NCBI GenBank assembly: GCA_050258095.1
Contig: JBLMYD010000038.1
Location: 3,594-67,593, forward strand
Origin: Chloroflexota bacterium
GTDB lineage: Bacteria; Actinomycetota; Thermoleophilia; Solirubrobacterales; 70-9
Reading direction: 5' to 3'
Length of the DNA stretch: 64,000 nucleotides
Below the pieces are notes generated by a model. That model saw only the letters and a list, made by a program, of their open reading frames with translations, was not told the DNA's origin and ran no database searches. The position numbers and the translations under genes are program-made. Positions 1-14,604 of this stretch are shown piece after piece; position 1 is the first letter of the stretch, and every line of letters starts with the position of its first letter.

Positions 1-354
1 GACTATCCCAACGGCGCCTTCTCCTACTACGAGCTAGTCGTCCCGGTCGACACCACCGTCGAGCTCGACCTCGTCTCCACCGACGTGATCCACACCTGGG
101 ACGTCCCCGCCCTCGCCGGCCAGCGCGACGCCGTCCCGGGCAAGACCAACCACGTCGTCTTCCGCGCCGACGAAGAAGGCGTCTACGACGGCCAGACCGC
201 GACCTTCTCGGGCCAGGCCTACGCCGCGATGCGAACCGCGGTCGACGTCGTCTCGCCGGAGGAATACGAAAGCTTCCTCAAACGACAGAAGTCCGACATC
301 CAGGCCGCCCAGGACCGTGTCGTCGACCTGATCCAAAAAGGAGAAGTGCCGTGA
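1..354 (+). CDS. Heme-copper oxidase subunit II-like protein, C-terminal cupredoxin part (5' end outside window); CuA ligands missing
   Basis: Frame 1 is open from nt 1 to TGA 352-354. The translation ..ELVVPVDTTVELDLVSTDVIHTWDVPALAGQRDAVPGKTN.. aligns with the canonical CtaC of this window (..EMHVPLDRQIEFKMHSQDVIHSFWVPEWRIKKDNVPGITT..). The CuA loop CTELCGFGHAAM reads TATFSGQAYAAM here. GTGA overlap with the next gene. Confidence 0.8.
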   Translation, partial: DYPNGAFSYYELVVPVDTTVELDLVSTDVIHTWDVPALAGQRDAVPGKTNHVVFRADEEGVYDGQTATFSGQAYAAMRTAVDVVSPEEYESFLKRQKSDIQAAQDRVVDLIQKGEVP

Positions 355-2051
355 TCGCCGAGCGCCCGACCCACCCCCCGGCCGAGGTCGTCGTCGACGG
401 CTACCCGAAGCGGCGGCCGCGCTGGATCGAGATCGTGACCAGCGCCGACCACAAGGACGTCGGCCGGGTGATGATCGGCGCCGCGCTCGGCTTCCTCTTC
501 ATCGCCCTGGTCGAGCTGCTGCTGATGCGCCTGCAGCTCGTGGTGCCGGAAAACACGCTGCTCACCCCGGTCGCCTTCAACCGCATGCTCTCCCTCTACG
601 GGGCGACGGCGATCTTCCTCTTCGCGATCCCGCTCGCGCTCGGCCTCTTCTACTACCTGGTGCCGCTGCAGATCGGCGCCCGCGGGACGGCGCTGCCGCG
701 GCTCGGCCAGCTCGGGCTCTGGCTCTACCTGGCGGGCGCGACCGTGCTCTACTCGGGCTTCCTCTTCACGCCGACGGAGGCGGGCGTCAACCCGCTCGCC
801 CCGCTCTCCGAACTGGCCTTCCTGTCCAACAACGGCGTCGACGCCTGGGCGGCGTCGACCGGCCTGGCGACGCTCGGCTTCGTCCTGGTCTCGATCGACC
901 TGGTCGCCACCCTGCGCCGCCTGCGCGCACCGGGCATGGCCTGGCGGCGCCTGCCCGTCTTCTCCTGGTCGGCGGCGATCTGCTCCTGGCTGATGCTGGT
1001 CATCGGCCCGGTGATGCTCGCCGCGATCACGATGCTGCTGATCGACCGCAACTTCGACGGCATCTTCTTCGCCGACGGCTCCGGCGGCGCGCCGCTGCTC
1101 TGGGAGCACCTGAGCTGGATCTTCTTCACCGGCGCCTACATGCTGATCCTGATCACGGCGCTCGGCGCGATCGCCGAGATCGTCCCGGTCTTCTCGGGTC
1201 GGCCGCTCGCCGGTCGCAACGTCGTGATCGCCTCGCTCGGCGCGATCGCCGCGATCGGCACCCTGGCCTGGATGCAGAACATGCTCACCGCGCCAATCGG
1301 GATCGGCTGGATGTACTACGCGATGGTGATGTCGCTGGCGCTGATCGTGCCCTTCGGCCTCGTCTTCTTCAACCTGATCGCGACGATGGTCGGCGGCGCC
1401 CTGCAGCTGCGCGCACCGCTGCTCTTCGCCGCCGGGGCGCTCTCGGCGATCTCGATCGGGCTCGCCGCCGAGGTCTCGCACTCGATGGTCGCGGTCGCCT
1501 GGCGCCTGCACAACACCGTCGACGCCGGCGCCGCCACCCACTTCGCCCTGGTCGGCGGCAGCGTCTTCGGCGGCTTCGCGGCGCTCCACTACTGGTATCC
1601 GAAGCTGACCGGCCGGACGATGGGCGAGACGCTGGCGCGCATCTCCTTCTGGACGATGGCGATCGGCACGCTGCTCGCCTTCGTGCCGCTGTTCCTCGCC
1701 GGCACCGACCACGGCCAGGTGGTCGACGCCTACAAGTTCTTCTCCGGCACGGGGGTCAGCACCGACAACCTGATCGCGACGATCGGCGCCTTCGTCCTCG
1801 CGCTCGGGATCCTGCTGACGCTCGCCAACGCGATCGTCAGCCGCAGCGGCGGCGCCCGGGCCGGACACGACCAGTGGGGCGGCGACTCGCTCGAGTGGTT
1901 CGCCCTCTCGCCGCCGGAGCCGCACAACTTCGACGTGCTGCCCGACGTGCGCAGCGCGCGGCCGATGCGCGACATCCGCGAGGCGATCGCCCACAGCACG
2001 GCCCGCGGCGGGCCCGAGCCCGCGCCGCGCGAGACGCAGCCGGTAGCCTGA
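351..2051 (+). CDS. Heme-copper oxidase subunit I-like membrane protein lacking most canonical His ligands
   Basis: 566 aa and polytopic. COX1 landmarks are present (ADHKDVG, LRAPGM, HYWYPK). The ligand motifs of the in-window CtaD (SAHAAIMIF / WFYSHPAVY / WAHHMF / VAHIHFVLFGG) read SLYGATAIF / WIFFTGAYM / WMQNML / AATHFALVGG. Confidence 0.8.
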   Translation: MIAERPTHPPAEVVVDGYPKRRPRWIEIVTSADHKDVGRVMIGAALGFLFIALVELLLMRLQLVVPENTLLTPVAFNRMLSLYGATAIFLFAIPLALGLFYYLVPLQIGARGTALPRLGQLGLWLYLAGATVLYSGFLFTPTEAGVNPLAPLSELAFLSNNGVDAWAASTGLATLGFVLVSIDLVATLRRLRAPGMAWRRLPVFSWSAAICSWLMLVIGPVMLAAITMLLIDRNFDGIFFADGSGGAPLLWEHLSWIFFTGAYMLILITALGAIAEIVPVFSGRPLAGRNVVIASLGAIAAIGTLAWMQNMLTAPIGIGWMYYAMVMSLALIVPFGLVFFNLIATMVGGALQLRAPLLFAAGALSAISIGLAAEVSHSMVAVAWRLHNTVDAGAATHFALVGGSVFGGFAALHYWYPKLTGRTMGETLARISFWTMAIGTLLAFVPLFLAGTDHGQVVDAYKFFSGTGVSTDNLIATIGAFVLALGILLTLANAIVSRSGGARAGHDQWGGDSLEWFALSPPEPHNFDVLPDVRSARPMRDIREAIAHSTARGGPEPAPRETQPVA

Positions 2052-2058
2052 CGCGTCG

Positions 2059-2958
2059 ATGTCCGGTGCCGAAACCGCTGTCGTCGTACAGCGCACTCCC
2101 GCCTTCGTCGCGACGCTGCGCGACTACCTGACGCTGACCAAGCCGAAGGTGCAGTCGCTGCTGCTGCTGACGACGATCACGACGATGTACGTCGCCGGCG
2201 ACCCCTCCCCCGGCCTCGTCTTCCTCGTCTGCCTGGGCGGCGCGCTCTCGGCCGGCGGCGCCGGCGCGATCAACCATGCCGTCGATCGCGACATCGACCG
2301 GGTCATGGCCCGCACGGCGAGCCGGCCGGTCGCAGGCGGTCGCATCTCGCCGCAGGCCGCGATCGCCTTCGGCGTCGCCCTCGGCTGCGCCTCCTTCCTG
2401 CTGCTGGCGCTCGCCGTCAACCCGCTGGCGGCGGCCCTCTCGCTCTCCGGGCTGCTCGGCTACGTCTTCGTCTACACGCTCTGGCTGAAGCGCTCGACGC
2501 CGCAGAACATCGTCATCGGCGGGGCGGCCGGCGCCGTGCCGCCGCTGGTCGCCTGGGCGGCCGTCACCGGCGGCATCGGCGGCACCGCCCTCTTCCTCTT
2601 CGCGATCGTCTTCTTCTGGACGCCGCCGCACTTCTGGGCGCTCTCGCTGCTGATGAAGGACGAGTACGCCAAGGTCGGCGTGCCGATGCTGCCCGTCGTT
2701 CGCGGCGAGGACGAGACGCGCCGCCAGATCCTCCTCTACACGGTCCTGCTCTACGCGGTGACGCAGCTGCCGTTCTGCGCGGGCGGCTTCGGGGTCGAGT
2801 ACCTGGTCGCCTCGATGGCGCTGGGCGGCGGCTTCATCTACTGCGCGGTGCGCCTGCTGCGCAGCCGCGACCGGCGCTGGGCCCTGCGCACCTACCTCTA
2901 CTCGCTCGCCTACCTGGCGCTGCTCTTCGTCTCGATGCCGATCGACCGGGTCTTCTAG
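2059..2958 (+). CDS. ctaB: Protoheme IX farnesyltransferase (heme O synthase)
   Basis: 299 aa UbiA-type prenyltransferase with LTLTKPKV, the NHAVDRDIDRVM (NxxxDxxxD) motif and multiple TM helices. Starts 8 nt after the subunit I-like gene. Confidence 0.9.
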   Translation: MSGAETAVVVQRTPAFVATLRDYLTLTKPKVQSLLLLTTITTMYVAGDPSPGLVFLVCLGGALSAGGAGAINHAVDRDIDRVMARTASRPVAGGRISPQAAIAFGVALGCASFLLLALAVNPLAAALSLSGLLGYVFVYTLWLKRSTPQNIVIGGAAGAVPPLVAWAAVTGGIGGTALFLFAIVFFWTPPHFWALSLLMKDEYAKVGVPMLPVVRGEDETRRQILLYTVLLYAVTQLPFCAGGFGVEYLVASMALGGGFIYCAVRLLRSRDRRWALRTYLYSLAYLALLFVSMPIDRVF

Positions 2959-2998
2959 TAGAAATCGGCCCGTGGATCGCGAGACCGCACGAGCGAGC

Positions 2999-3085
2999 AT
3001 GAGCGCCGGCCTTGTCGCCGGCGGCGTCGCTGTGGCGATCTTCGCGCTCTGCTTCGTCGTCGCGATGCTCTACATCGCCTCATAG
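2999..3085 (+). CDS. Candidate 28-aa single-TM micro-protein (MSAGLVAGGVAVAIFALCFVVAMLYIAS)
   Basis: Runs ATG 2999 to TAG 3083-3085. 24 of 27 codons end in G/C, which is a better coding signature than the overlapping ORF-track frame 3012... The stop lies 1 nt before the GTG of the next ORF. Below the size cut-off of the ORF track. Confidence 0.35.
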   Translation: MSAGLVAGGVAVAIFALCFVVAMLYIAS

Positions 3086-3086
3086 C

Positions 3087-3374
3087 GTGAGCGAGCACCG
3101 TCACATCCCCGAGCCCGGCGAGCTGGTCTACCGGCCCCGCCCCTCGTGGGCGCCGGCGATCTTCGCCTTCGCGATCGCCCTCGCCGTCTGCGGCATCTTC
3201 ATCAGCTTCATGGTGCCCGGCTGGATCTACTCGATCATCGGCGGCGTCGTCGCCCTCTTCGCCCTGCGCAGCATGGTCAAGGAGGCGAGCAGCTCCTACT
3301 TCAAGCTCCCGCGCACGCAGAAGGCGCGCGGCGCTGTGCTCCCGGTCGAACCGATTTCCCCGCCGCAGGGCTGA
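3087..3374 (+). CDS. Small 2-TM membrane protein (about 95 aa), function unknown
   Basis: An in-frame GTG at 3087 lies within ORF 3012..3374. Two hydrophobic helices (WAPAIFAFAIALAVCGIFISF, WIYSIIGGVVALFAL). I reject the N-terminal part of the track ORF because it overlaps the better-scoring micro-ORF frame. Confidence 0.5.
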   Translation: MSEHRHIPEPGELVYRPRPSWAPAIFAFAIALAVCGIFISFMVPGWIYSIIGGVVALFALRSMVKEASSSYFKLPRTQKARGAVLPVEPISPPQG

Positions 3375-3375
3375 A

Positions 3376-3777
3376 TCAGTCCGGCGTCATCCCGGAGGTG
3401 GCTCCGTCGGAGGTCCAGACGCGGACGATGTCGCGCATCGAGAGCACGCCGACGAGGTCCGGTCCCTCGTAGACGACGAGGTGGCGGATGCCGCGGCGCG
3501 ACATCTCGGCGGCGGCGCGCTCGAGGCTCCAGTCCGGCGAGGCCGCGATCACGCTGTCGCTCATGTGGTCGCCGACCCGCTCGGCGTCGGGATCCTCGCC
3601 GGCGCCCAGCGAGAGCAGCACGTCGCGCTCGGTGACGATCCGCGGCCCGGGCGTCTCGTCGTCGCTGACCAGAGCCGCCCCGGTCCCCTTCTCGGCCATC
3701 ATCCTCGCCGCCTCGCGCAGAGTGTGGCCCGGCCCCACGGTGAGGACCACCTCCGACATGCCATCCCGTACGAGCAT
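3376..3777 (-). CDS. CBS-domain pair protein
   Basis: 133 aa containing two CBS-like units (..VLTVGPGHTLREAARMM..IVTERDVL.. and ..SVIAASPDWSLERAAAEM..GIRHLVV..LVGVLSMRDIV). Confidence 0.8.
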   Translation of the reverse strand: MLVRDGMSEVVLTVGPGHTLREAARMMAEKGTGAALVSDDETPGPRIVTERDVLLSLGAGEDPDAERVGDHMSDSVIAASPDWSLERAAAEMSRRGIRHLVVYEGPDLVGVLSMRDIVRVWTSDGATSGMTPD

Positions 3778-3896
3778 CTGGCTTCTCCCCTCGGTCGCGA
3801 GCTAGTGTGAATCGCCTCAAGCCTACCCGACCACCGTGCCTGGACAAACCGCTTCCGCAGGGGCGGGCATATAGACTCCGGCGCGCTTCGCGCCGT

Positions 3897-4577
3897 ATGC
3901 CAACGCTCTCGAAACTCATTCGTCCCGCGCTCGTCCTCGCCGCCCTCGCCGCGGTCGCGCTGCCCGCGTCCGGCTGCGGCACGAGCACGGCCGACACGAC
4001 GCGCGGGCGGGCCCTCTTCGTCCAGAAGTGCGGCGTCTGCCACGCGCTTGCGCAAGCGGGGACGACGGCGCAGATCGGGCCCAACCTCGACGACGCCTTC
4101 GCTGCCGCCCGCGCCGCCGGCGAGGGCGGCAGCACGGTCGAAGGGATCGTCAAGGACCAGGTCGAGCATCCGCGGCCCAGCAACGCCAACCCGGCGGTCT
4201 CGATGCCGGCCGACGTCGTCACCGGGCAGGACCTCGAGGACGTCGCCGCCTACGTCGGCCTCTGGGCCGGCGTTCCCGGCGCGGCGCCGCCGAAGGTGCA
4301 GGGAGGCCCGGGCGCCCAGATCTTCGCCGGCAGCGGCTGCGGCGGCTGCCACACGCTGGCGGCGGCCGGCTCGGGAGGCACGGCCGGCCCGAACCTCGAC
4401 GAAGTCCTGCCGGGCCAGACAGCGGCGATGGTCGAAGAGTCGATCGTCGATCCGAACGCCAAGATCGCCAAGGGCTACTCGGCCAACGTGATGCCGCCGA
4501 ACTTCGGCCAGACCCTCTCCAAGACGGAAATCGAAGAGCTGGTCGAATTCCTGATCGAATCGACCGGCGGCGGCTGA
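3897..4577 (+). CDS. Dihaem c-type cytochrome, probable lipoprotein
   Basis: Two CxxCH motifs (CGVCH, CGGCH). The internal ATG at 3897 gives MPTLSKLIRPALVLAALAAVALPASGC with a lipobox. The upstream part of track ORF 3807.. is not signal-like. Confidence 0.8.
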   Translation: MPTLSKLIRPALVLAALAAVALPASGCGTSTADTTRGRALFVQKCGVCHALAQAGTTAQIGPNLDDAFAAARAAGEGGSTVEGIVKDQVEHPRPSNANPAVSMPADVVTGQDLEDVAAYVGLWAGVPGAAPPKVQGGPGAQIFAGSGCGGCHTLAAAGSGGTAGPNLDEVLPGQTAAMVEESIVDPNAKIAKGYSANVMPPNFGQTLSKTEIEELVEFLIESTGGG

Positions 4578-4633
4578 AAAGGCGGCTGAGCGCCCCCGGC
4601 GGCCGCTCGCCGCTTGACATCATCCCCGGCGGC

Positions 4634-5599
4634 ATGCGCGCCCGATACAGCATCTCACCGCGGCTCTACGCCACGGTCGCGCTGATCGCGCTGGTCGCCC
4701 TCGCGCTGATCGTGCTCACGGGGGCAGCCGTGCGCCTCACCGGCTCGGGCCTGGGCTGCCCGGACTGGCCCAAGTGCTACGGCCAGACCGTGCCGCCGCT
4801 CAACACCCACGCCGTGATCGAGTTCGCCAACCGAGTCTTCACCGGCTTCGTCGGCTTCGCCGTGATCGCGGCCAGCGTGCTCGCCTGGTTCCGCAAGCCG
4901 TTCCGCGGGCACCTGGCGCTGTTCGGCGCGCTGCTGCCGCTGGGAGTGATCGGCCAGGCGATCCTCGGCGGCCTCGTCGTCCGCCACCACCTCGCCCCGG
5001 GCCTGGTGATGAGCCACTTCATCCTCTCGATGCTGCTGCTCGACGCCGCCTTCGCGCTCGCCTGGTGCGCGCGCTACGAACCGACCGACCGCCGCCGCTC
5101 CGGCGACCGGCTCGGCGTCTGGGCCGTGCGAGCGCTGATCCCGTTCGGCCAGCTGACGATCCTGGCGGGGACGATCGCGACCGCCTCCGGGCCCCACGCC
5201 GGCGCCCACGCCGGCCAGCTGGTGCGCCGCTTCCGCTTCGAGGGCGCCGACACGCTCGAATGGGTCGTCCAGCGGCACGCGGCGATCGCGACCGTCTTCG
5301 GCCTCGCCGCGATAGCCGTCTGGCTCCTCCTGCGGCGCCCGGGCGGCGACGACCGCGCCACCAGGCCCCTGGCCGTGGTGATCGGCCTGCTCGCCCTGCA
5401 GGGCGTCGTCGGCGGCGTCCAGTGGTTCCTCGAACTGCCGACGGAGATCGTCTGGGCCCACGTCGCCCTGGCGACGATCACCTGGCTGGCGATGCTGTGG
5501 ACGGTGGCGACGGCGGGGCGTTTGGAACCGAGAGTCAGCCCAGGTGCGTCACGAGTAGAGCGCCTGCCACTGCAAGAAGCGCAAGAGACAGGCGCGTGA
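4634..5599 (+). CDS. ctaA: Heme A synthase (COX15/CtaA family)
   Basis: The in-frame ATG at 4634 gives MRARYSISPRLYATVALIALV..LTGSGLGCPDWPKCYG.., the typical CtaA N-terminus, with 8 predicted TM helices. The Arg-rich 5' part of ORF 4028.. is rejected. Confidence 0.85.
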   Translation: MRARYSISPRLYATVALIALVALALIVLTGAAVRLTGSGLGCPDWPKCYGQTVPPLNTHAVIEFANRVFTGFVGFAVIAASVLAWFRKPFRGHLALFGALLPLGVIGQAILGGLVVRHHLAPGLVMSHFILSMLLLDAAFALAWCARYEPTDRRRSGDRLGVWAVRALIPFGQLTILAGTIATASGPHAGAHAGQLVRRFRFEGADTLEWVVQRHAAIATVFGLAAIAVWLLLRRPGGDDRATRPLAVVIGLLALQGVVGGVQWFLELPTEIVWAHVALATITWLAMLWTVATAGRLEPRVSPGASRVERLPLQEAQETGA

Positions 5600-5774
5600 T
5601 CGTCGCGTGCAGGCCGATGACCATCCGCTGGGTCTCCCGGATTTCCTCGCCCACGGTTAGGAACCGTTCGTCGACCTTGTCGAAGCGCGCGTCCATGCGC
5701 CGCCCAAGGTCATCGACCTGGTTTTTCAGATCGTCAATCCGGTCGTCGGTCCAGCGCGATGTCATCAGCTCCAT
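5535..5774 (-). CDS. Tail-anchored coiled-coil protein (79 aa), paralogue of 61357..61722
   Basis: MELMTSRWTDDRIDDL..ARFDKVDERF.. followed by a C-terminal TM (LSLALLAVAGALLV). The N-terminus matches MDLMTKSWTDERLEERFDRIDDRFD of the second copy. The 3' end overlaps the ctaA 3' end convergently by 65 nt. Confidence 0.55.
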   Translation of the reverse strand: MELMTSRWTDDRIDDLKNQVDDLGRRMDARFDKVDERFLTVGEEIRETQRMVIGLHATITRLSLALLAVAGALLVTHLG

Positions 5775-5841
5775 TCTGCCAGCCTAGAAGACAGAAAGTT
5801 TCGCGTGGCGCGCTATATCGCGCGGATCTGAAAAAAATTCG

Positions 5842-6492
5842 TCACGAAACAGCGCGCTCGGCGCTGAGGTCGACGACCACGTGGGTGACCGGCAGGTCGA
5901 CACGTTCGCGTGCCTGCTCGACGACGCCCCGCTCGAGCCAGCGCGAGCGCTCCGGCGGGTGGGTGGAGATGACTATCTCGTCCGCCGAGAAGACGCGCAG
6001 AGCGTCCTCGATCGCCACGCCCGGATCGGAGTCGCCGATCTCGCCCTTCGCCTTCAGACCCAGCTCCCGGATCGCGATCAAGGAGAGCTCCATCCGCTGC
6101 CGCGCCAGCTCGATCGCTTCGTCGATGTCGGAGGTCCAGTGCGAGGTCCGCGACGCAGCGAGCGCCGGCGTGACGACGAGAATCTCGCTGTCGCGCCCGC
6201 TGCACCGCCTGCGGATCTCGTCGATCAGCGCCTCGCCGCCGACCGTCTCGTTGGCGACGACGAGGAGCCGGAACCTGCCGTCGCCGCCCTTCGAGACCGC
6301 AACCTCCTGCAGCAGCGATCCCCGCGCGCCCCGGTAGGCCATCTCGGCGCCGAAGCCGACCAGCGCCGCCGCCCAGACGACCCCGATCGCGGGCCTGGTC
6401 AGCAGCGTCAGTCCGATCACCGAGACCGCGCCGAGACCGATCACGACGACCCAGCGAAACGCATCCGCCTCCGACCTCAAGGGGTTGTGCAT
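5842..6492 (-). CDS. Membrane-anchored protein with a USP-like (adenine-nucleotide alpha-hydrolase-like) domain
   Basis: 216 aa. Two N-terminal TM helices are followed by RFRLLVVANETVGGEALIDEI..DEIVISTHPPERSRWLERGVVEQARERVDLPVTHVVVD. This domain is repeated twice in 11029..11901. The fold assignment rests on pattern only. Confidence 0.6.
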   Translation of the reverse strand: MHNPLRSEADAFRWVVVIGLGAVSVIGLTLLTRPAIGVVWAAALVGFGAEMAYRGARGSLLQEVAVSKGGDGRFRLLVVANETVGGEALIDEIRRRCSGRDSEILVVTPALAASRTSHWTSDIDEAIELARQRMELSLIAIRELGLKAKGEIGDSDPGVAIEDALRVFSADEIVISTHPPERSRWLERGVVEQARERVDLPVTHVVVDLSAERAVS

Positions 6493-6557: not shown

Positions 6558-9500
6558 TCAGCGGCTCCACTTCTGCACGCGATCGTTGAGCGAGTCGGCG
6601 ATCCAGAGATTGCCGCTGGAGTCGCTCGTGATGCCGGCGGGGAATTCGAATTCGAATTGTCCTTCGCCTTTGCCCCCTTCACCGAACTTGCCTTCGTAGG
6701 TGCCTTCTTCGCTGAACCACTGGACGCGGTTGTTGCGTTCGTCGACGATCCAGATCGTCCCCGCTTCGTCGACCGCGATCATGTCGGGATGCATGAACTG
6801 GCCGTCGAAGATGCCCGTGGTGCCGAATTCCTGAACGAATTCGCCGGATTCGTTGAACTCGATGACCGCCCCGGCCAGCCAGTCGCAGACCCAGACGTTG
6901 TTGCCGGGGCCGATGTCGATGCCGCTCGGGTTGATCATGTGCCCTTTTTCGCCTTCGGACGGCTTGACGACCCGAATCAGTTTCCCTTTCGGACTGAACT
7001 CCTGCAGACGGCCGTTGTAGGTGTCGGCGACCCAGATGTCGCCCTCGGCGTCGATCGCGATGCTTTCCGCGTCGAATAGCTGGCCTTCTTCGGTGCCCAT
7101 TTCGCCGAACTGTTCAAAGCATTCTCCCGTTTCGTTGAACTGCGTAACGCGGTAATTGCCCGCGTCGTCGACCCAGATGTAGCCTTCGGCGTCGATCGCC
7201 ACCGACTTCGGCCGGTTGATCTGGCATTTCCCTTCCCCCGATTCGCCGAATTCTCTGATGAATTTGCCTTCTTTGTCGAACTTCTGCAGGCGGTCGTTTT
7301 CCATGTCGACGACCCAGACGTTGCCTTCGGCGTCGATCGCGACGTCGGCGGGATGTTTGAATTTTCCTTCCCCTTCGCCTTCGGAGCCGAAATTGAGGGT
7401 GCTGCGCGGCAGCGACTTGAAGGTTTTGTCTTCCCCTTTGACGATTCCCCCTTCGCTTTCGGCGACGACTCGGAAGTGGTATTCGGTGGCTGTTTTCAGG
7501 CCGGTCGGAGTCTGGCTGACGGCTTTGGCTTCGGTGCCCGAGCCGACTGATTCGCCCGATGTCGGAATTTTGCTTCCGTAGGACGTGGTTTCACCGTATT
7601 CGAACCAGTAGGTTGTTGCGTAGCCTTTGGGGTTGACCAGGGCATTGAGGTTCGCCTGGGTTAATTTGATCGCCGTGGCGGCTTCGGTCGTGACTTTGGG
7701 CGGCGGCTTCGGTTTCCACTTCTGGACCCTGTCGTTGACCGTGTCGGCGACCCAGACGTTGCCTTCGGAATCGGCGCCGATGCCGCCCGGTTCCGCAAGC
7801 TCGCCGGAGTTGTTCCCGGGCGTGCCGAACTGGCCGACGTAGTTGCCTTCGGAGTCGAACCTCTGCACGCGATTGTTGCCCGCATCGGTTACCCAGAGCC
7901 AGCCTTCGGAGTCGATTGCCACCTGGGTGGGTTCTAAGAATTTGCCGTTGCCGTTGCCTTCCGAACCGACTTTGCGGATGAATTTGCCTTCCGAGGTGAA
8001 CTCCTGCAGGCGATCATTGCCGGTGTCGGCTACCCAAACGTTGCCTTTGGAGTCCAGGGCGATGCCTTGAGAGTCATCGAGTTTCCCATCTTCGCTCCCC
8101 AAGCTTCCAAATTCACGGACGAATTCGCCTTTACTGGTGAACTCCTGAACTCGCGGAAATTCCGTGGTGGACTCAACTGTCCAAATATGGTTTGACGAGT
8201 CGATCGAGATGTCTCGCAGCGCCTTGAATTTTCCACTTTCCGAACCAAGGCTGCCAAACTTAAACAGGTATTCGCCTTTGGAATTGAACTCTTGAACTCG
8301 GTGGTTGCCCCGCGTGGCAACCCAAATATTTCCTTTTGAGTCCAACGCTATCCCTTCGGGTTCAATGAATTGGTCGTTTGCACTCCCTTCGCTGCCGAAC
8401 TGAAGGATGAATTTGCCTTCGGAGTCGAACTTCTGGACCCGGTTATGGGCGAAGTCAGTGACCCAAACGTTGCCTTCTTCATCGGCGATCGCGTCGCTCG
8501 GTTCACTCAAGCGCCCAGCTCCCGAGCCTTCGCCACCGAGCTTACGGATGAATTCGCCTTTGCTGGTGAACTCCTGCATACGGTTGTTGAGGGTATCGGC
8601 AACCCAGACGTTGCCTTTGGAATCGACGCCAATCCCCTCCGGCTTTGAAAGCTGTCCGCTGTCATTGCCATGAGTGCCGAATTCCTGGAGAAGTTTGCCT
8701 TCGCCGTTGAACTGCTTCACGTTGTTGCCATTTGTGCTGGCGACCCAAATGTCACCGGTGGAGCCGATCGCGATGCCTTGGGGGTTGGAGACCCCACTGG
8801 CTTTGCGGATGAATTTGCCTTCTGCCGTGAACTCCTCCAAGCGGCTGTTGCCCGTGTCAGCAACCCAAATGTCGTTTTCTGTGTCTATGACGATACCCCT
8901 CGGATTTTCGAATTTCCCGTTTTCGGAGCCCTGGGTGCCGAATTTTTGGATGAAATTTCCTTCGGAATCGAACTCCTGCACCCGGTCGTTTAGGGTATCC
9001 GCAATCCAGACGTTTCCTTCGGAATCGACCGCGATATCCTCGGGTTTTTTGAGTTGCCCGTCTTCGGTGCCTTCGCTGCCGAATTTGCGGACGAATTCGC
9101 CTTTCGACGTGAACTCCTGAACTCGATAGTTATCGGTATCGGCAATCCAAACGTTGCCTTCCGGGTCGAGTGCGATGCCTTGAAGGTTGGAGAGCAACCC
9201 GTCCCCCGACCCTAAGGCTCCGAACTGCTGGATGAATTTCCCTTCCGCGTCGAACTCCTGAACCCGATTGTGACCGGAGTCGGCGACCCAGACGTTGCCT
9301 TCGGCATCTACGGCCGCTTCGCCCGGGATGGAGAGCTGTCCCGCGCCTATGTTGTCGCCGCCGAACTTGCGGACGAATTTGCCTTCCGAGTCGAGCTCCT
9401 GAACCCGGTCGTTGGAGGTATCGGCAATCCAGAGGTTGCCTTTGGAGTCGATGACAAGACCGCCCGGATCTGAAAGCTGGCCGTCTTCGTTGCCGGCGTT

Positions 9501-10349
9501 GCCGGCTTTGGCGACGAATTTGCCTTCCGAGTCGAACTCCTGCAGGCGGTTGTTGCCCGTATCGGCGACCCAAACGTTACCCGCGGAGTCGAGTGCGATG
9601 CCCTGTGGGCTTTGGAGTTGTCCGCCTTCGGTTCCTTCGCTGCCGAATTTGCGGACGAATTCGCCTTTGGGGTTGAACTCTTGAACCCGGTGACTGTTGG
9701 TGTCCGCAGCCCAAACGTTGCCTTCGGAGTCGATGGCCATGCCCTGGGGCTTTAAGAACTTACCGTCTTCGTCTCCCACTGTTCCAAACTTGAGGAGGAA
9801 TTCCCCCGCTGAATTGAACTTCTGGATTCGATTGTTGTTGGTGTCGGCCACCCAGAAGTTGCCTTCGGAGTCGATGGCCATGCCCTGGGGCTTGCCGAAA
9901 TGACCATTGGCAGTACCCGACGAGCCGAATTTCCCGACGAATTCGCCCGTCGCCGAGAACTCCTGAACGCGGTTATTGCCGCTGTCGACGACCCAGATGT
10001 TGCCTTTGGAGTCGACCGCGATCCCCTGGGGTTCGTCGAAGAGGCCGTCAGCGGTGCCGAAGGCACCGAGCTCGCGGACGAATTTGCCTTCGGAGTCGAA
10101 CTCCTGGACCCGGTTGTGGCCGGTGTCGGAAACCCAGGAGTTGCCTTCGGAATCGAGAGCGACCCAGCCCGGTTCGACCAGGTGGCCGCCCGCGGTTCCT
10201 TCGCCGTCGATGCCCAGTTCGTATGTCGCCGTGGCGGCCTCAGCCAACGGAGCTGCGGCCAGAGCGCCCAGGAAGATGCAAGAGAGGGCAAGCGCAACGG
10301 TGTGCGCTTTCCGCGCACTGCGCCGCCCGCTTGCTAACGAACCCTCCAT
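6558..10349 (-). CDS. Secreted NHL-repeat beta-propeller protein: 24 blades (18 + FN3-like module + 6)
   Basis: 1263 aa with signal peptide ..FLGALAAAPLAEA/ATAT. There are 24 tandem units of about 47 aa, e.g. GKFVRKFGSEGTEDGQLKKPEDIAVDSEGNVWIADTLNDRVQEF. A beta-sandwich insert (..ATTYWFEYGETTSYG..TEYHFRVVAES..) follows blade 18. GC is markedly lower than in the flanks. Confidence 0.9.
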   Translation of the reverse strand: MEGSLASGRRSARKAHTVALALSCIFLGALAAAPLAEAATATYELGIDGEGTAGGHLVEPGWVALDSEGNSWVSDTGHNRVQEFDSEGKFVRELGAFGTADGLFDEPQGIAVDSKGNIWVVDSGNNRVQEFSATGEFVGKFGSSGTANGHFGKPQGMAIDSEGNFWVADTNNNRIQKFNSAGEFLLKFGTVGDEDGKFLKPQGMAIDSEGNVWAADTNSHRVQEFNPKGEFVRKFGSEGTEGGQLQSPQGIALDSAGNVWVADTGNNRLQEFDSEGKFVAKAGNAGNEDGQLSDPGGLVIDSKGNLWIADTSNDRVQELDSEGKFVRKFGGDNIGAGQLSIPGEAAVDAEGNVWVADSGHNRVQEFDAEGKFIQQFGALGSGDGLLSNLQGIALDPEGNVWIADTDNYRVQEFTSKGEFVRKFGSEGTEDGQLKKPEDIAVDSEGNVWIADTLNDRVQEFDSEGNFIQKFGTQGSENGKFENPRGIVIDTENDIWVADTGNSRLEEFTAEGKFIRKASGVSNPQGIAIGSTGDIWVASTNGNNVKQFNGEGKLLQEFGTHGNDSGQLSKPEGIGVDSKGNVWVADTLNNRMQEFTSKGEFIRKLGGEGSGAGRLSEPSDAIADEEGNVWVTDFAHNRVQKFDSEGKFILQFGSEGSANDQFIEPEGIALDSKGNIWVATRGNHRVQEFNSKGEYLFKFGSLGSESGKFKALRDISIDSSNHIWTVESTTEFPRVQEFTSKGEFVREFGSLGSEDGKLDDSQGIALDSKGNVWVADTGNDRLQEFTSEGKFIRKVGSEGNGNGKFLEPTQVAIDSEGWLWVTDAGNNRVQRFDSEGNYVGQFGTPGNNSGELAEPGGIGADSEGNVWVADTVNDRVQKWKPKPPPKVTTEAATAIKLTQANLNALVNPKGYATTYWFEYGETTSYGSKIPTSGESVGSGTEAKAVSQTPTGLKTATEYHFRVVAESEGGIVKGEDKTFKSLPRSTLNFGSEGEGEGKFKHPADVAIDAEGNVWVVDMENDRLQKFDKEGKFIREFGESGEGKCQINRPKSVAIDAEGYIWVDDAGNYRVTQFNETGECFEQFGEMGTEEGQLFDAESIAIDAEGDIWVADTYNGRLQEFSPKGKLIRVVKPSEGEKGHMINPSGIDIGPGNNVWVCDWLAGAVIEFNESGEFVQEFGTTGIFDGQFMHPDMIAVDEAGTIWIVDERNNRVQWFSEEGTYEGKFGEGGKGEGQFEFEFPAGITSDSSGNLWIADSLNDRVQKWSR

Positions 10350-10405: not shown

Positions 10406-11029
10406 TTAGAGCACGTAGACCGTCGTGAAGACGATGATCCACATGATGTCGACGAAGTGCCAGTAGATGCCCGGGACCTCGACGCCGAGGTGGTTCTTCG
10501 CCTCGGGGCCGAAGTGGCCGCGGAAGGCGCGGATGGTGGCAAAGCTGAGCAGGCAGAGGCCGACGAAGACGTGGGCGCCGTGCAGGCCGGTGAGGCCGTA
10601 GAAGATCGAGCCGAAGGCGAGGTCGCGGGCGCTGAAGCCAAGATGCGCGTACTCGTTGATCTGGATGAAGAGGAAGGTCGCGCCCAGCAGCCAGGTGAGC
10701 ACTAGGCCGAGCTTCAGGCCCCTGCGGTTGCCACGACGGATCGACTCGAGCGCGTAGTGGACGGTGAAGCTCGAGGAGACGAGGATCGCCGTGTTGACGC
10801 CGGCCACCGCAACGGGCAGTTTGTACGGTTCGGGTGGCCAGGTCGGCGGGTGAACGACGACACGGAGGAAGAAGTAGGAGGCGAAGAAGGCGCCGAACAG
10901 CATCACCTCGGAGACGATGAAGAGAAGGATGCCGAGCGTCTGGCGGTCGATCCGCGAGCTCTGGTTGGCCTCGGGCGGCCCGTGGTGCTCCTCGTGGGCA
11001 TGGCCGAGTGCGACGGTGGCGCTCTCCAT
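10406..11029 (-). CDS. ctaE: Cytochrome c oxidase subunit III
   Basis: The internal ATG at 11029 gives a 207-aa protein: MESATVALGHAHEEHHGPP..LFIVSEVMLFGAFFASYF..GLHGAHVFVG..YWHFVDIMWI... The start shares one nt with the upstream TGA (TGATG). Confidence 0.9.
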   Translation of the reverse strand: MESATVALGHAHEEHHGPPEANQSSRIDRQTLGILLFIVSEVMLFGAFFASYFFLRVVVHPPTWPPEPYKLPVAVAGVNTAILVSSSFTVHYALESIRRGNRRGLKLGLVLTWLLGATFLFIQINEYAHLGFSARDLAFGSIFYGLTGLHGAHVFVGLCLLSFATIRAFRGHFGPEAKNHLGVEVPGIYWHFVDIMWIIVFTTVYVL

Positions 11030-11901
11030 CAGTGCCCTCCCCCCTCCTCGGCGACGGCCGCGGCGACCGCGGCTGCGGGACGGCCCACCTCGAGGTGGGT
11101 CACGGTCTTGTCGGTTATCTCGCGCACGCGGCCGATCAGGTCGTCCTCGAGCCAGCGCGAGCTCTCGCCGGCGAAGGTCGAGATCAGCACCTCGTCGATC
11201 CGGTAGTGCTCGATCGCATTGCGCACGGCGTTGAACGGTTCGGGGCTCATCGGCTGTCCGGTCGCATCGACGTCGGCGCGGTACAGCTCGGCCAGCGTCG
11301 AGGCGAGGTCGCGCACGATCTTCGCCTCGTCGACGTCCTCGGCGCGCGGGCAGATGATCGTGTAACGGTGCGGATGGCCGGCGGCCCGCTCCTTCAGCCG
11401 CTCGACCAGGTCGGGGGCGGCGATCGTCTTCGTCGCCACGACCAGCGTGTGGTTGACCTCCCAGCTGATCGCGTCCTCTTCGATCCGCACCGGGATGTGA
11501 GTGACGGCGACGTCCGGTTCGAAGCGGCCCTTCGCCCACTCGACCAGGTCCTTGCGGGTGAAGCCGAAGCGGGTCTCGTTGAGGCAGGAGAGCAGCACCT
11601 CGCCCGGTTCGTGGGCGCGCACCGCGTCGTCGAGGGCCAGCGACGGCTCGGGGTCCATCACCTCGCCGATCGAGTCGATCCCGTACTCGGAGAGGATCGA
11701 CATCGTCACCTCGACCCGGGCCCGGGCGGCCTCGCGCAGCTCGCCAGCGTCGATCAGCTGACCGACCGCCGGCTGGTTCTGCGGTGCGGCGACGGCGACG
11801 AACGGCACCTCGGCGGCGCGCTCTTTGACCGCCGCCAGCAGCTTGCGCCCGCCCGCCACCTCGTTGAGGAAGACGAGCAGCGGCCGTCCCTCGGCACTCA
11901 T
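11029..11901 (-). CDS. Tandem USP-like two-domain protein embedded in the cta operon
   Basis: 290 aa made of two homologous halves. The second half ends ..DEVLISTFAGESSRWLEDDLIGRVREITDKTVTHLEV, matching 5842..6492. ATGA overlap with the ctaD stop, and its TGA overlaps the ctaE ATG. Confidence 0.65.
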   Translation of the reverse strand: MSAEGRPLLVFLNEVAGGRKLLAAVKERAAEVPFVAVAAPQNQPAVGQLIDAGELREAARARVEVTMSILSEYGIDSIGEVMDPEPSLALDDAVRAHEPGEVLLSCLNETRFGFTRKDLVEWAKGRFEPDVAVTHIPVRIEEDAISWEVNHTLVVATKTIAAPDLVERLKERAAGHPHRYTIICPRAEDVDEAKIVRDLASTLAELYRADVDATGQPMSPEPFNAVRNAIEHYRIDEVLISTFAGESSRWLEDDLIGRVREITDKTVTHLEVGRPAAAVAAAVAEEGGGH

Positions 11902-13799
11902 GTGGACACCACCGAGGGCTCAGGCGCCTGCACCTCGGCCCCTTCGCCGGCCAGGATCGCGTGGCGGGCGCCGGGCACGCCGTACTCGTAGGGTCCGCCG
12001 ACCACGCGCGGGATCTCGTCGAAGTTGAAGATCGGCGGCGGCGAGGAGACGAGCCACTCGATCGACTTGCCGCGCCAGGGGTTGCCTTCGGCCTTCGGCC
12101 CGAAGCGCCAGCTGACGATCATGTTGTAGAGGAAGACGAGCTGGACGGCGCCGAGCAGAAAGGCGAAACAGCTGATCAGCAGGTTCCAGTCGCCGAACTG
12201 GGAGGCGTAGTCCGCCACGCGCCGTGGCATCCCCTCCATCCCGATCCAGTGCATCGGTAGGAACGTTCCCCAGGTGCCGACCAGGGTCCCCCAGAAGTGG
12301 ATGCGACCGAGCTTCTCGTCGTACATCCGCCCGGTCATCTTCGGGAACCAGTGGTAGATGCCGGCGAAGATCGTGAAGACGGAGCCGCCGAAGAGGACGA
12401 AGTGGATGTGGGCGACGATGAAGTACGTGTCGGAGACGTGGATGTCGATCGGCACCATGCCCAGCATCACGCCGCTGATCCCGCCGACGGTGAAGGTGAC
12501 GATGAAGGCGAGCGCGAACAGCATCGCCGTCGAATAGGTGTGGATCTTGCCGAAATACAGGGTCCCCAGCCAGGAGAAGATCTTGATCCCGGTCGGCACC
12601 GCGATCAGCAGCGTGGTGATCATCATCGGCACGCGCAGCCAGCTGAACATGCCGGCGACGAACATGTGGTGCGCCCAGACCGAGTAGCTGAGGACGACGA
12701 TCCCGATCAGCGCCAGCGCCATCAGGCGGTAGCCGAAGATCGGCTTGCGCGAGTGGATCGAGATGACCTCGCTGATGATCCCGAAGCCGGGCAGCATCAT
12801 GATGTAGACGGCTGGGTGCGAGTAGAACCAGAAGATGTGCTGGTAGCTGATCACGTCGCCGCCGCCGGCGAACTGGAAGAAGTTGGTGTGCAGGGCGCGG
12901 TCGAGGAGGACCATGAACTGGGCGCCGGCGATGAAGGGCGTCGCGGCGACGACCAGCAGCGAGGTCGAGAGGTTGGCCCAGACCAGCAGCGGCATGCGCC
13001 AGAAGGTCATCCCGGGCGCACGCATGGTGATGATCGTGACGAGGAAGTTGAGCGCCGTCGCGATCGAGGAGGCGCCGGCGAACTGAACGCCGAGGTTGAA
13101 GAAGGACTGGCCTAGGGGCGCTCCCGTCGAGAGCGGCGCGTAACCGGTCCAGCCGGCGTCGAAGGCGCCGCCCGGCGCGAGGAAGCTGGCGACGAACATC
13201 AGGCCGGCGATCGGCAGCATCCAGAAGCTGAGCGCGTTTAGCCGCGGGAAGGCCATGTCCGGCGCGCCGATCATCAGCGGCAGCACGTAGTTGGCGATCC
13301 CGGCGAAGACCGGGACGATGAAGACGAAGATCATGATCGCCGCGTGGGCGGAGAAGAGGCCGTTGAAGGTGCCGGCGTCGACGATCTGGGTGCCCGGCTG
13401 GGCCAGCTCGGCCCGGATCAGCATCGCCATCAGCCCGCTGACGAAGAAGAAGAAGAAGTTCGTGCAGATGTACTGGATGCCGATCACCTTGTGATCGGTG
13501 TTGAAGCGGAAGTAGTCGCGCCAGCCCCTGGCGCCGTGCTGCGAGTGGTCCTCGGGAATCGTCGGCATCCCGGCCGCCCAGCGCAGCCAGTAGTCGAAGC
13601 AGCCGAAGCCGAGCAGGAAACCGAGCGGCCCGGTGATCATCGCCACGATCAGCTGCGGGTAGCCGGTCTGCTCGGTCTGGGTGGCGGGCAGGCCCGACGC
13701 CTTGCGCAGGACGACCACGAGAGCGAAGCCGAAGGCGAAGCCGCCCACGGCGCCGATCGCGCCGCGAATCCACCCCGGTTGCTTGATCGCAGCCACCAT
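11898..13799 (-). CDS. ctaD: Cytochrome c oxidase subunit I (canonical)
   Basis: 633 aa carrying all six canonical His ligand motifs (SAHAAIMIF, WFYSHPAVY, WAHHMF, VAHIHFVLFGG). Confidence 0.95.
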   Translation of the reverse strand: MVAAIKQPGWIRGAIGAVGGFAFGFALVVVLRKASGLPATQTEQTGYPQLIVAMITGPLGFLLGFGCFDYWLRWAAGMPTIPEDHSQHGARGWRDYFRFNTDHKVIGIQYICTNFFFFFVSGLMAMLIRAELAQPGTQIVDAGTFNGLFSAHAAIMIFVFIVPVFAGIANYVLPLMIGAPDMAFPRLNALSFWMLPIAGLMFVASFLAPGGAFDAGWTGYAPLSTGAPLGQSFFNLGVQFAGASSIATALNFLVTIITMRAPGMTFWRMPLLVWANLSTSLLVVAATPFIAGAQFMVLLDRALHTNFFQFAGGGDVISYQHIFWFYSHPAVYIMMLPGFGIISEVISIHSRKPIFGYRLMALALIGIVVLSYSVWAHHMFVAGMFSWLRVPMMITTLLIAVPTGIKIFSWLGTLYFGKIHTYSTAMLFALAFIVTFTVGGISGVMLGMVPIDIHVSDTYFIVAHIHFVLFGGSVFTIFAGIYHWFPKMTGRMYDEKLGRIHFWGTLVGTWGTFLPMHWIGMEGMPRRVADYASQFGDWNLLISCFAFLLGAVQLVFLYNMIVSWRFGPKAEGNPWRGKSIEWLVSSPPPIFNFDEIPRVVGGPYEYGVPGARHAILAGEGAEVQAPEPSVVST

Positions 13800-13812
13800 C
13801 AGCAGTCCTCCA

Positions 13813-14604
13813 TTATGCCCCGCCGGCGCCGATCGGCACCGGGTTGGTTTCCGTGTCTTGGACGATCGATTCCTTGTAGGACTGCGGCACGCGTTCTTTC
13901 ACGCCGGCAACCCATTTTTCGAAGTCGGCGGGCTTTTCGACGACGACCTTGGCGCGCATCGCGGCGTGGCCGAAGCCGCAGAGCTCGGTGCAGATCAGCT
14001 GGAAGGTGCCGAGCCGGTCCGGGGTGACGATCGCCGTCGTCGTGATCCCCGGCACGTTGTCCTTCTTGATCCGCCACTCGGGCACCCAGAAGGAGTGGAT
14101 CACGTCCTGGGAGTGCATCTTGAACTCGATCTGGCGGTCGAGCGGCACGTGCATCTCCCCCTGGATCCAGCGACCGCCGTTTTCGGGGTAGCCGAAGCTC
14201 CAGGCGTACTGCTGGGAGAAGACGTCGACGATCAGCGGGTCCTTGGCCGGCTTTTCGATTTCGTTGAGCACGACCCAGCTGTAGCCGGCGCCGAAGAGGA
14301 CGATGATCGTCGGGATCAGCGTCCAGGCCACCTCGAGCCGCGTGTTGCCGTGGATCGGCTCGCCGTCGGACTCGTCGCCCGGCTTGGCCCGGAACTTCCA
14401 GAGGGCGTAGAAGAGCATCACGACGACCAGGGAGAAGACGAAGGCCGAGAGGACGATCATCACGTTGAGCAGGTCGTCGATCTTCGGCGCCGCCGTCGAG
14501 GCCTCCTGGCCGTTCCAGTTGATCGAGAGCATGACCGCCGAGATCGCGGCTGCAAGCGCAACCGTGGCAGCGAGCATCTTCGCTATCGGCAGGCGACCCA
14601 TCAT
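13813..14604 (-). CDS. ctaC: Cytochrome c oxidase subunit II (CuA-containing)
   Basis: 263 aa with 2 TM helices and a cupredoxin domain. CuA site DVIHSFWVP ... CTELCGFGHAAM. Confidence 0.95.
   Translation of the reverse strand: MMGRLPIAKMLAATVALAAAISAVMLSINWNGQEASTAAPKIDDLLNVMIVLSAFVFSLVVVMLFYALWKFRAKPGDESDGEPIHGNTRLEVAWTLIPTIIVLFGAGYSWVVLNEIEKPAKDPLIVDVFSQQYAWSFGYPENGGRWIQGEMHVPLDRQIEFKMHSQDVIHSFWVPEWRIKKDNVPGITTTAIVTPDRLGTFQLICTELCGFGHAAMRAKVVVEKPADFEKWVAGVKERVPQSYKESIVQDTETNPVPIGAGGA

Follow-up and report, generated by a model that had tools for sequence, protein, structure and literature searches.

The closest described counterpart of the genes analysed here is a COX1-like gene of Acetobacter without metal ligands, for which Matsutani et al. 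2014 (BBA 1837:1810) is reportedly the source cited. Our subject is a pair of oxidase-like genes, a subunit II-like gene (COX2L) followed by a subunit I-like gene (COX1L), at the start of a 64,000-nucleotide stretch of contig JBLMYD010000038.1 (GenBank assembly GCA_050258095.1, positions 3,594 to 67,593 of the forward strand; Actinomycetota, Thermoleophilia, Solirubrobacterales). This whole stretch, with a G+C content of 70%, is referred to below as the window. According to Degli Esposti et al. 2023 (PMC10715153), the Acetobacter gene, termed "deranged", is clustered with ctaB, and its product has been suggested to stabilise CtaB. The two cases are alike in that a subunit I homologue without metal-binding residues lies beside a haem O synthase gene, and in both the roles are proposed only. 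They differ in lineage (Alphaproteobacteria versus Thermoleophilia/Actinomycetota). Moreover, Acetobacter has a bo3 quinol oxidase in place of the cytochrome c oxidase, whereas here a fully liganded ctaC-ctaD-ctaE operon lies 8-10 kb away; the window has a paired, translationally coupled pseudo-subunit II; one His survives; and the conserved cluster also includes genes for CtaA, a dihaem cytochrome c and a CBS protein. The association of a ligand-less COX1 homologue with ctaB is already on record from that source. What the window adds is another phylum, a coupled pseudo-subunit II, the coexistence with a functional oxidase next door, the breadth of occurrence (hundreds of species, with a sister form in Acidimicrobiia) and a graded series of ligand loss.

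Beyond the Acetobacter case, we found no ligand-less family of the haem-copper oxidase (HCO) superfamily in the literature, and a survey of new HCO families covers metal-bearing enzymes only, all of which retain the metal site (PMC11214002). Factors of haem a insertion or activation (Surf1/Shy1, Coa2, PET117 and the CtaA-CtaB complex) resemble the pair in proposed role only, through the coupling of the synthases to subunit I maturation; Surf1/Shy1, Coa2 and PET117 have no sequence or fold relationship to COX1L. Quinol oxidases (E. coli bo3 CyoA/CyoB and B. subtilis aa3-600 QoxA/QoxB) likewise have a subunit II cupredoxin without CuA but, unlike COX1L, keep all subunit I ligands and proton channels. 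The best matches in the PDB are CtaD subunits of actinobacterial bcc-aa3 complexes (M. smegmatis 6HWH/6ADQ and C. glutamicum 7Q21; phmmer 2e-79, Foldseek TM-scores of 0.87-0.89), which, in contrast to COX1L, are fully liganded and of the A1 type, and whose supercomplex partner genes we did not see in the window.

The most direct comparison is offered by the canonical ctaC-ctaD-unknown-ctaE operon of the window itself (10406..14604, minus strand), which the sequence-only reading of this DNA had rightly picked out for that purpose and which served as our internal reference for ligand positions. Its ctaD (11898..13799, minus strand) encodes all six His, the Tyr and the K and D residues, together with the YS motif of the A2 type. 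With the A2-type CtaC/CtaD (11898..14604) the pair shares 29-31% identity, a subunit I of 12 transmembrane (TM) helices and a subunit II composed of an N-terminal hydrophobic region, formed by two TM helices in CtaC, and a cupredoxin domain; structural Pro, Gly and Trp residues and the cytoplasmic loop motifs DHK, PLxIGA, ALPRL, RAPGM, WxPKxTGR and LEW..SPP..NFD are common to CtaD and COX1L. Unlike its canonical counterparts, the pair has lost five of the six His, the Tyr, the channels, the Arg pair and four of the six CuA ligands.

COX1L (351..2051, plus strand) encodes 566 amino acids (aa), and its match to Pfam COX1 (1.1e-85) spans profile positions 2-436 of 436. Three alignments, a MAFFT pairwise alignment with the window CtaD, a five-sequence alignment and a phmmer alignment with M. 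smegmatis CtaD, agree in register. The helix II haem a His is replaced by Tyr83, the helix VI CuB His by Thr260, the helix VII CuB His-His pair by Gln309-Asn310 and the helix X haem a3 His by Ala395; the second haem a His of helix X is kept as His397, the sole survivor of the six metal-binding His residues. At the position of the cross-linked Tyr stands Met264, with a Tyr one position earlier, at 263. The D-channel Asp has become Gly112 and the K-channel Lys Val338, the Glu/YS position is taken by Ala262 and Phe258-Phe259, and the haem-propionate Arg pair (GMPRR) reads GQVV. The replacements of the His residues and of the Tyr, including the count of one remaining canonical His in six, had been read from the letters beforehand and stand; the losses of the channel residues, of the Glu/YS position and of the Arg pair come in addition. 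None of the three registers places a His at the lost COX1L ligand positions.

Structure prediction, the second check proposed, gave a confident subunit I fold: the AlphaFold2 model of COX1L has 12 TM helices, a mean predicted local distance difference test score of 85.3 and a predicted template modelling score of 0.88. Foldseek aligned it with Thermus caa3, R. sphaeroides aa3, E. coli bo3 and actinobacterial CtaD at TM-scores of 0.84-0.89, with a root-mean-square deviation of ~2 Å for Thermus caa3, R. sphaeroides aa3 and mycobacterial CtaD. The cytoplasmic tail is conserved as PDVRSxRPxxDIRE. Positions with at least 95% conservation make up 54% of the N-side as compared to 44% of the P-side and TM regions, a weak trend that we do not take as evidence. 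Alignments and model together indicate that COX1L has an intact oxidase subunit I fold from which the chemistry is gone, and the residues lost strongly support the prediction that it neither catalyses a redox reaction nor pumps protons.

Of its partner COX2L (1..354, plus strand; Pfam COX2, 4.4e-16), the last 117 aa are visible, with the open reading frame (ORF) running off the window start. In related loci the gene is intact and encodes ~232-236 aa (for example at 7314..8012 in locus L001), with an N-terminal hydrophobic region that aligns with the N-terminus of canonical CtaC and, on this alignment, would form the two TM helices. The earlier statement that both ORFs are intact thus holds within the window for COX1L, and for COX2L is borne out in the relatives only. 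The visible part is 30% identical to the window CtaC, and the canonical CuA loop, CTELCGFGHAAM, reads TATFSGQAYAAM in COX2L. In COX2L and its relatives the first CuA Cys is replaced by Ser, Ala or Thr, the Glu by Thr, the second Cys by Ser and the second His by Tyr. Both Cys and the second His are lost, as had been noted, but the claim that no CuA His remains needs correction: the first His (DVIH) is invariant in 85 of 85 loci and the CuA Met is kept in 84 of 85. The electron-entry Trp is invariant across the 85 loci as well.

Several catalytic assignments were tried and rejected. A quinol oxidase does not fit a COX1L without ligands and channels, and the scores against NCBIfam CyoB and QoxB are far below the cutoffs. 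A nitric oxide reductase (cNOR, qNOR, eNOR, bNOR, sNOR, gNOR or nNOR) is discounted by the loss of the metal-site His residues; these reductases carry two haems and a non-haem metal with His ligands (in gNOR an Asp replaces one His) and have no Tyr cofactor. As a catalytic A-family subunit I, COX1L fails through the loss of ligands, Tyr and channels, and scores 377.8 bits against the NCBIfam CtaD equivalog TIGR02891, whose cutoff of 670.75 the canonical window CtaD, at 652.6 bits, also misses slightly. COX2L was rejected as a CuA-containing subunit II on its incomplete ligand set, a set that is still full in the basal lineage L084 described below.

The pair is tied tightly to ctaB. The COX2L stop and the GTG start of COX1L overlap as GTGA at 351-354, preceded by a ribosome-binding site, AAAGGAGAAG, and a gap of 7 nt separates the COX1L stop from the ATG (2059) of ctaB (2059..2958, plus strand), the product of which scores 358 and 332 bits against the NCBIfam haem O synthase equivalogs, above their cutoffs. 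The junction sequences agree with the GTGA coupling, and with the start of ctaB within 8 nt, that had been read before.

To see how far this arrangement extends, we scanned one genome per GTDB species. COX1L relatives are encoded in 343 GTDB species genomes; the best 80 of these all belong to Solirubrobacterales, Conexibacteraceae or metagenome-assembled genomes of Thermoleophilia and are 75-87% identical to COX1L, and more than 120 metagenome protein clusters share 83-92% identity with it. Among the 85 loci that we examined, 80 (L001-L080) are close related loci, and in all 80 the order COX2L-COX1L-ctaB-small ORF-CBS (minus strand)-cytochrome c-ctaA is identical, to the contig ends. In 80 of 84 loci COX2L ends in an overlap with an in-frame start of COX1L (ATGA, GTGA or TTGA), and in 74 of 83 no more than 20 nt separate the COX1L stop from a start in the ctaB frame (median 5 nt). 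The link to ctaB, direct or with ctaA in between, is conserved in 83 of 84. The co-occurrence of the ligand-less pair with ctaB and ctaA, for which a survey of relatives had been suggested, is therefore conserved across these loci and, as set out below, in further lineages.

COX1L is also maintained by selection. A single tblastn segment covering at least 95% of the query, uninterrupted, was obtained in 85 of 85 loci. Ratios of nonsynonymous to synonymous substitution rates (dN/dS; median Nei-Gojobori estimates) are comparable between genes only, because an extreme bias in third-position G+C probably depresses dS and inflates the values of all genes; they are 0.33 for COX1L and 0.27 for COX2L, next to 0.21 for ctaB, 0.23 for ctaA, 0.38 for the dihaem cytochrome c, 0.12 for canonical ctaD and 0.13 for canonical ctaE. 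Among orthologues that share just 40-49% identity, 67 COX1L residues are invariant. With the more distant loci L081 and L082, COX1L shares 45-49% identity, ctaB 58-61% and canonical ctaE 80-81%. Purifying selection acts on the pair as it does on the ordinary neighbouring genes, though less strictly than on the catalytic subunits. A decaying pseudogene, which the sequence-only reading had named as the outcome that would overturn it, is rejected on the intact ORF in 85 of 85 loci, the dN/dS of 0.33 and the conserved translational coupling. We are highly confident that the pair is both non-catalytic and selected.

A search of 1.84 billion representative proteins, together with neighbourhood look-ups, places the pair in a wider family. 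The seven ligand positions read YTMQNAH in the window, in the order COX2L-COX1L-ctaB. Other Solirubrobacterales, with COX1L at the same position and among the same neighbours, read FSVQSTF (L081, P0122 cluster) and LTFLNSW (L082, P0124), neither with a His. Another Solirubrobacterales subclade reads YTVQNDY, again without His, in the order COX2L-COX1L-ctaA-ctaB (L093, P0393). The same order is found in the more basal lineage L084 (P0127), which keeps two His (HHSLRYG) and a subunit II with a full CuA motif. L085 and L086, in the order COX2-COX1-ctaB, read HQVQHWN and NQGRHQG. The forms make up a graded series that runs from CuA intact with two His (L084) through one His to no His. The residues at the ligand positions differ between positional orthologues, and hence no fixed replacement metal site is apparent in the family from its sequences. 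The haem-propionate Arg pair is lost in all family members compared.

In Acidimicrobiia a further form is found, with the order ctaB-COX1L-COX3L followed by a gene for a cupredoxin or a thioredoxin-like protein (L087 and L091, Acidimicrobiales type). Its ligand pattern, H-Y-W-S-E-Q/T-H, occurs in more than 90 of the 120 listed Acidimicrobiia clusters; P0167, from L087, reads HTWNEAH. Like the window locus, the Acidimicrobiia type (P0167, P0216 and more than 100 protein clusters) has a COX1 paralogue beside a haem O synthase gene and has lost the binuclear centre, and with it the Arg pair and the K- and D-channel residues. Unlike the window locus, it keeps both haem a His, has COX3-like and cupredoxin partners and has ctaB as the first gene. 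These genes lie directly upstream of a canonical caa3 operon. Since both axial His of haem a are kept, the Acidimicrobiia COX1L is probably a one-haem, non-oxidase protein. The COX1 paralogues of this group lie at 7001-8677 in L087 and at 3161-4879 in L091, and the proteins concerned are P0167, P0188, P0216 and P0316-P0432.

Adjacency to a haem O synthase gene is seen in eight of eight further actinobacterial-type lineages (L081, L082, L084-L087, L091 and L093), with ctaA between the pair and ctaB in two of them (L084 and L093). The neighbouring UbiA proteins pass the NCBIfam haem O synthase equivalog cutoff in seven of seven cases tested, and that of L093 was assigned by Pfam only. A neighbour-joining tree, crude and prone to long-branch attraction, groups the actinobacterial degenerate forms, Acidimicrobiia included; we treat their possible monophyly as a lead only.

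Degenerate COX1 genes of other settings also came to light. COX1 homologues without two to four of the ligand His occur at 6001-7695 in L089 (P0249, HQFWLQH) and at 6001-7668 in L090 (P0208, HHYQHAH), directly downstream of alternative complex III genes (NrfD/ActC, ActD and cytochrome c) and followed by weakly matching COX3- and COX4-like genes; they represent another kind of degenerate oxidase. At 2015-3697 in L088 (P0306, from a cluster with a member named Luteimonas sp.), a gammaproteobacterial pair of COX2-cytochrome c and COX1 reads HRF--QH.

Taken together, selection keeps the COX1L fold, its structural Pro, Gly and Trp residues, its cytoplasmic loop motifs and tail and the physical and translational link to ctaB and, in some lineages, to ctaA. 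We read the pair as a dead paralogue of the core of an A-family haem-copper oxidase, kept by selection as a membrane module and no longer as an enzyme. This agrees with the earlier proposal of a non-catalytic scaffold distinct from a quinol oxidase, given that haem, copper, proton-channel and propionate residues are all gone. The link of the pair to haem O/A handling or oxidase assembly, which we infer from gene neighbourhood, appears better founded now than when it was first proposed. We suggest, as a reading with about an even chance of being right, that the pair is an oxidase-derived, non-catalytic module whose mimic of apo-subunit I would support the haem O/A synthases, by stabilising or activating them, and might also offer a platform for haem hand-off. 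The pair would be translated as a coupled unit with ctaB and, in sister lineages, also with ctaA. The pseudo-subunit I would persist in the membrane as a permanent mimic of apo-subunit I and would dock, stabilise or activate CtaB and possibly CtaA, and the platform might pass farnesylated haem to the real CtaD, encoded 10 kb away. Contact of COX1L with CtaB or CtaA, and likewise an effect on haem O/A synthesis or oxidase assembly, would be predicted on this reading. Besides the suggestion made for Acetobacter, two sets of observations on better-described systems fit it: CtaA and CtaB form a membrane complex, in which CtaA is thought to bind apo-subunit I and deliver haem A (PMC9145763), and in yeast the multimerisation of Cox10 depends on newly synthesised Cox1 and on early intermediates (PMC7140478).

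Four observations weigh against this proposal. The evolutionary rate of COX1L is two to three times that of the canonical subunits (dN/dS ~2.7 times the value for ctaD), a sign of relaxed constraint. ctaB and ctaA are common in or beside genuine oxidase operons (PMC4986455), so that the adjacency of ctaB could be synteny inherited from a once-functional operon and not a functional tie. The degenerate COX1 genes of L088 (Luteimonas-type) and of L089 and L090 (linked to alternative complex III) do not lie beside ctaB. Finally, a check of eight degenerate representatives that are long or atypical turned up one COX1-COX3 fusion but none of COX1L with UbiA.

The proposal of an apo-subunit I mimic can be extended to the relatives. 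The pair may stand at one extreme of a family of pseudoenzymes that derives from oxidases and extends across Actinomycetota, its members acting as dedicated platforms for farnesyl-haem synthesis and delivery, docking and controlling CtaB and CtaA. In some clades such platforms might transiently hold haem O or haem A in a vestigial haem a pocket, bis-His in Acidimicrobiia and formed by Tyr83 and His397 in the window clade. We put this extension forward tentatively and regard it as less likely than not.

A different explanation is that the dead pair is an architectural element, packed against the aa3 oxidase or the bcc complex in a supercomplex, with no specific role in haem synthesis. It would suit the position of the cluster, which in related loci is followed on the opposite strand by the convergent canonical ctaC-ctaD-x-ctaE operon, and the fact that the closest structures and sequences are actinobacterial CtaD subunits of obligate bcc-aa3 supercomplexes. 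A C-terminal LPxxRSxRP motif is common to COX1L and mycobacterial CtaD and is missing from the A2-type CtaD of the window, and the invariant electron-entry Trp and first CuA His of subunit II point the same way. There is also a parallel in ligand-less bc1 subunits, which have been argued to be retained to stabilise Complex I (Degli Esposti et al., PMC10715153). However, a motif search of the window yielded neither qcr genes nor a Rieske motif, and no partner was identified. Moreover, it is with ctaB and ctaA, and not with the catalytic operon, that the pair is coupled most tightly and most recurrently, and a stoichiometric subunit would be expected to evolve at a rate nearer to that of ctaD and ctaE. 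On balance, we consider a purely architectural role unlikely.

Alternatively, COX1L might have acquired a new function on the old fold. It might still bind a cofactor or substrate in an unconventional manner, for example a single haem held by Tyr83 and His397, or else work as a channel, a transporter or a sensor, possibly under the control of the CBS protein. In close orthologues, Tyr83, His397, Tyr263, Gln309, Asn310 and Glu374 are indeed near-invariant (80-81 of 81; Asn310 up to 83 of 85), and Gln-Asn in place of the CuB His-His pair persists in 82-83 of 85 loci, distant orthologues included. COX1L also retains Arg60, which we take to be the equivalent of bovine Arg38, which forms a hydrogen bond with the formyl group of haem a. 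The retention of both haem a His in the Acidimicrobiia clade, which has lost the binuclear centre, shows that a single-haem state probably exists in the wider family, and the cluster includes a CBS-pair gene in every locus whose contig extends over that position. On the other hand, the axial positions are Phe/Phe, Leu/Trp or Tyr/Tyr in other Solirubrobacterales orthologues, and axial ligation is therefore not a requirement of the family; the haem-propionate Arg pair is lost everywhere; and neither the D- nor the K-channel has a substitute in the form of a conserved charged pathway. Conservation of at least 95% is reached by ~44% of all COX1L positions among the close orthologues, so that two selected residues gain no significance from being conserved alone. 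We regard a new function of this kind as rather improbable.

The last alternative, that the pair is the relic of a dead second oxidase operon whose ORFs are kept because ctaB expression depends on translational coupling and on the upstream promoter, with a nearly neutral protein, would account for the relaxed constraint (dN/dS 0.33 versus 0.12) and fast divergence, for the drift of the former ligand positions between lineages, for a series from the CuA-intact, two-His form of L084 to forms without His that resembles progressive decay, and for the tight stop/start coupling to ctaB, but is very unlikely in view of ~2.4 kb of membrane-protein coding sequence without frameshift or premature stop in 85 of 85 loci and relatives in 343 species, a dN/dS far below 1 and close to that of bona fide neighbours (0.38 for the cytochrome c, 0.23 for ctaA), the 67 residues invariant among orthologues that are 40-49% identical, the retention of the family across at least two actinobacterial classes and the confident 12-helix model.

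The remaining genes of the cluster follow ctaB. A 37-aa ORF with a single hydrophobic stretch (2972..3085, plus strand) is matched in L081 by a called gene of equal length in the corresponding place. One nucleotide past its stop, a GTG starts the gene (3087..3374, plus strand) of a 95-aa protein whose two hydrophobic stretches probably form TM helices; tblastn detects this protein in related loci at 52-77% identity. Neither ORF has a significant match in Pfam or NCBIfam (Cyt_c_ox_IV at E = 0.17 for the 95-aa protein). The N-terminal segment of the 95-aa protein reads HIPxP...RPSWxP, and a weak, non-significant match is to the C-terminal half of actinobacterial subunit IV (CtaF). The canonical operon has no ctaF, and the 95-aa protein may therefore be the missing small oxidase subunit, in a CtaF-like role. 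Next come a CBS-pair gene (3376..3777, minus strand; Pfam CBS, 1.4e-20), a gene for a dihaem c-type cytochrome with CGVCH and CGGCH motifs (3807..4577, plus strand; Pfam Cytochrom_C and Cytochrome_CBB3) and ctaA, encoding haem A synthase (4634..5599, plus strand; Pfam COX15-CtaA, 1.8e-28), with the ATG at 4634 as its likely start. The downstream list of the sequence-only reading had the two small membrane ORFs, the dihaem cytochrome c and ctaA right and overlooked the CBS-pair gene. That gene is syntenic in L001-L080 where the contig reaches it (75 of the 85 loci) and also in L081, L082, L084 and L093; its product is 58-79% identical across relatives, compared to 40-49% for COX1L. A scan of positions 1..6000 for promoters and terminators gave none above shuffled expectation.

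Upstream of the pair, on the opposite strand, genes for LPG_synthase_TM and PAP2_3 membrane proteins recur (L001, 5157-7200, minus strand; L081, L082 and L084). A fully liganded near relative, P0132 (L092), also adjoins an LPG_synthase_TM gene, a hint of a shared ancestral location.

The canonical operon shows some features of its own. It comprises ctaC (13813..14604, minus strand), ctaD, a gene without family match that encodes a 290-aa protein (11029..11901, minus strand) and ctaE (10406..11029, minus strand). In CtaD the YS motif of the A2 type (WFYSHPAVY) replaces the D-channel Glu, and an N-terminal extension of ~95 aa contains two hydrophobic segments. Subunit II has 263 aa and no fused cytochrome c domain; the dihaem cytochrome c at 3807..4577 is separate. 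The 290-aa gene shares stop/start overlaps with both ctaD and ctaE, between which it lies, and its product is an internal duplication of a ~140-aa domain; the copies at 11029..11901 (minus strand) and 5842..6492 (minus strand) are both conserved in related loci. Between cluster and operon, positions 6558..10349 (minus strand) encode an NHL-repeat protein of 1,263 aa, the N-terminus of which resembles a signal peptide, at a G+C content of 56-62% as compared to ~70% elsewhere, and the equivalent position in L081 holds genes of the NHL/Vgb_lyase type.

The safe synthesis of farnesylated haem and its handover from CtaB to CtaA and on to subunit I are of concern in bacteria and in mitochondria, and defects in COX10, COX15 and SURF1 link them to human disease. 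If the pair binds CtaB or CtaA, it would provide a ready-made probe of this handover step. If, furthermore, the view of an Actinomycetota-wide family of platforms were true, these proteins would be assembly factors of a new class, made out of the very enzyme that they serve, and would offer a handle on haem A delivery. NCBIfam has no model for the COX1L family, and public records name proteins of this type "cytochrome c oxidase subunit I" or "cbb3-type ... subunit I"; because of these names, metabolic reconstructions of the abundant soil Solirubrobacterales and Acidimicrobiia over-count terminal oxidases. The graded series of ligand loss, in turn, offers a rare view of the stepwise evolution of a pseudoenzyme within a respiratory complex.

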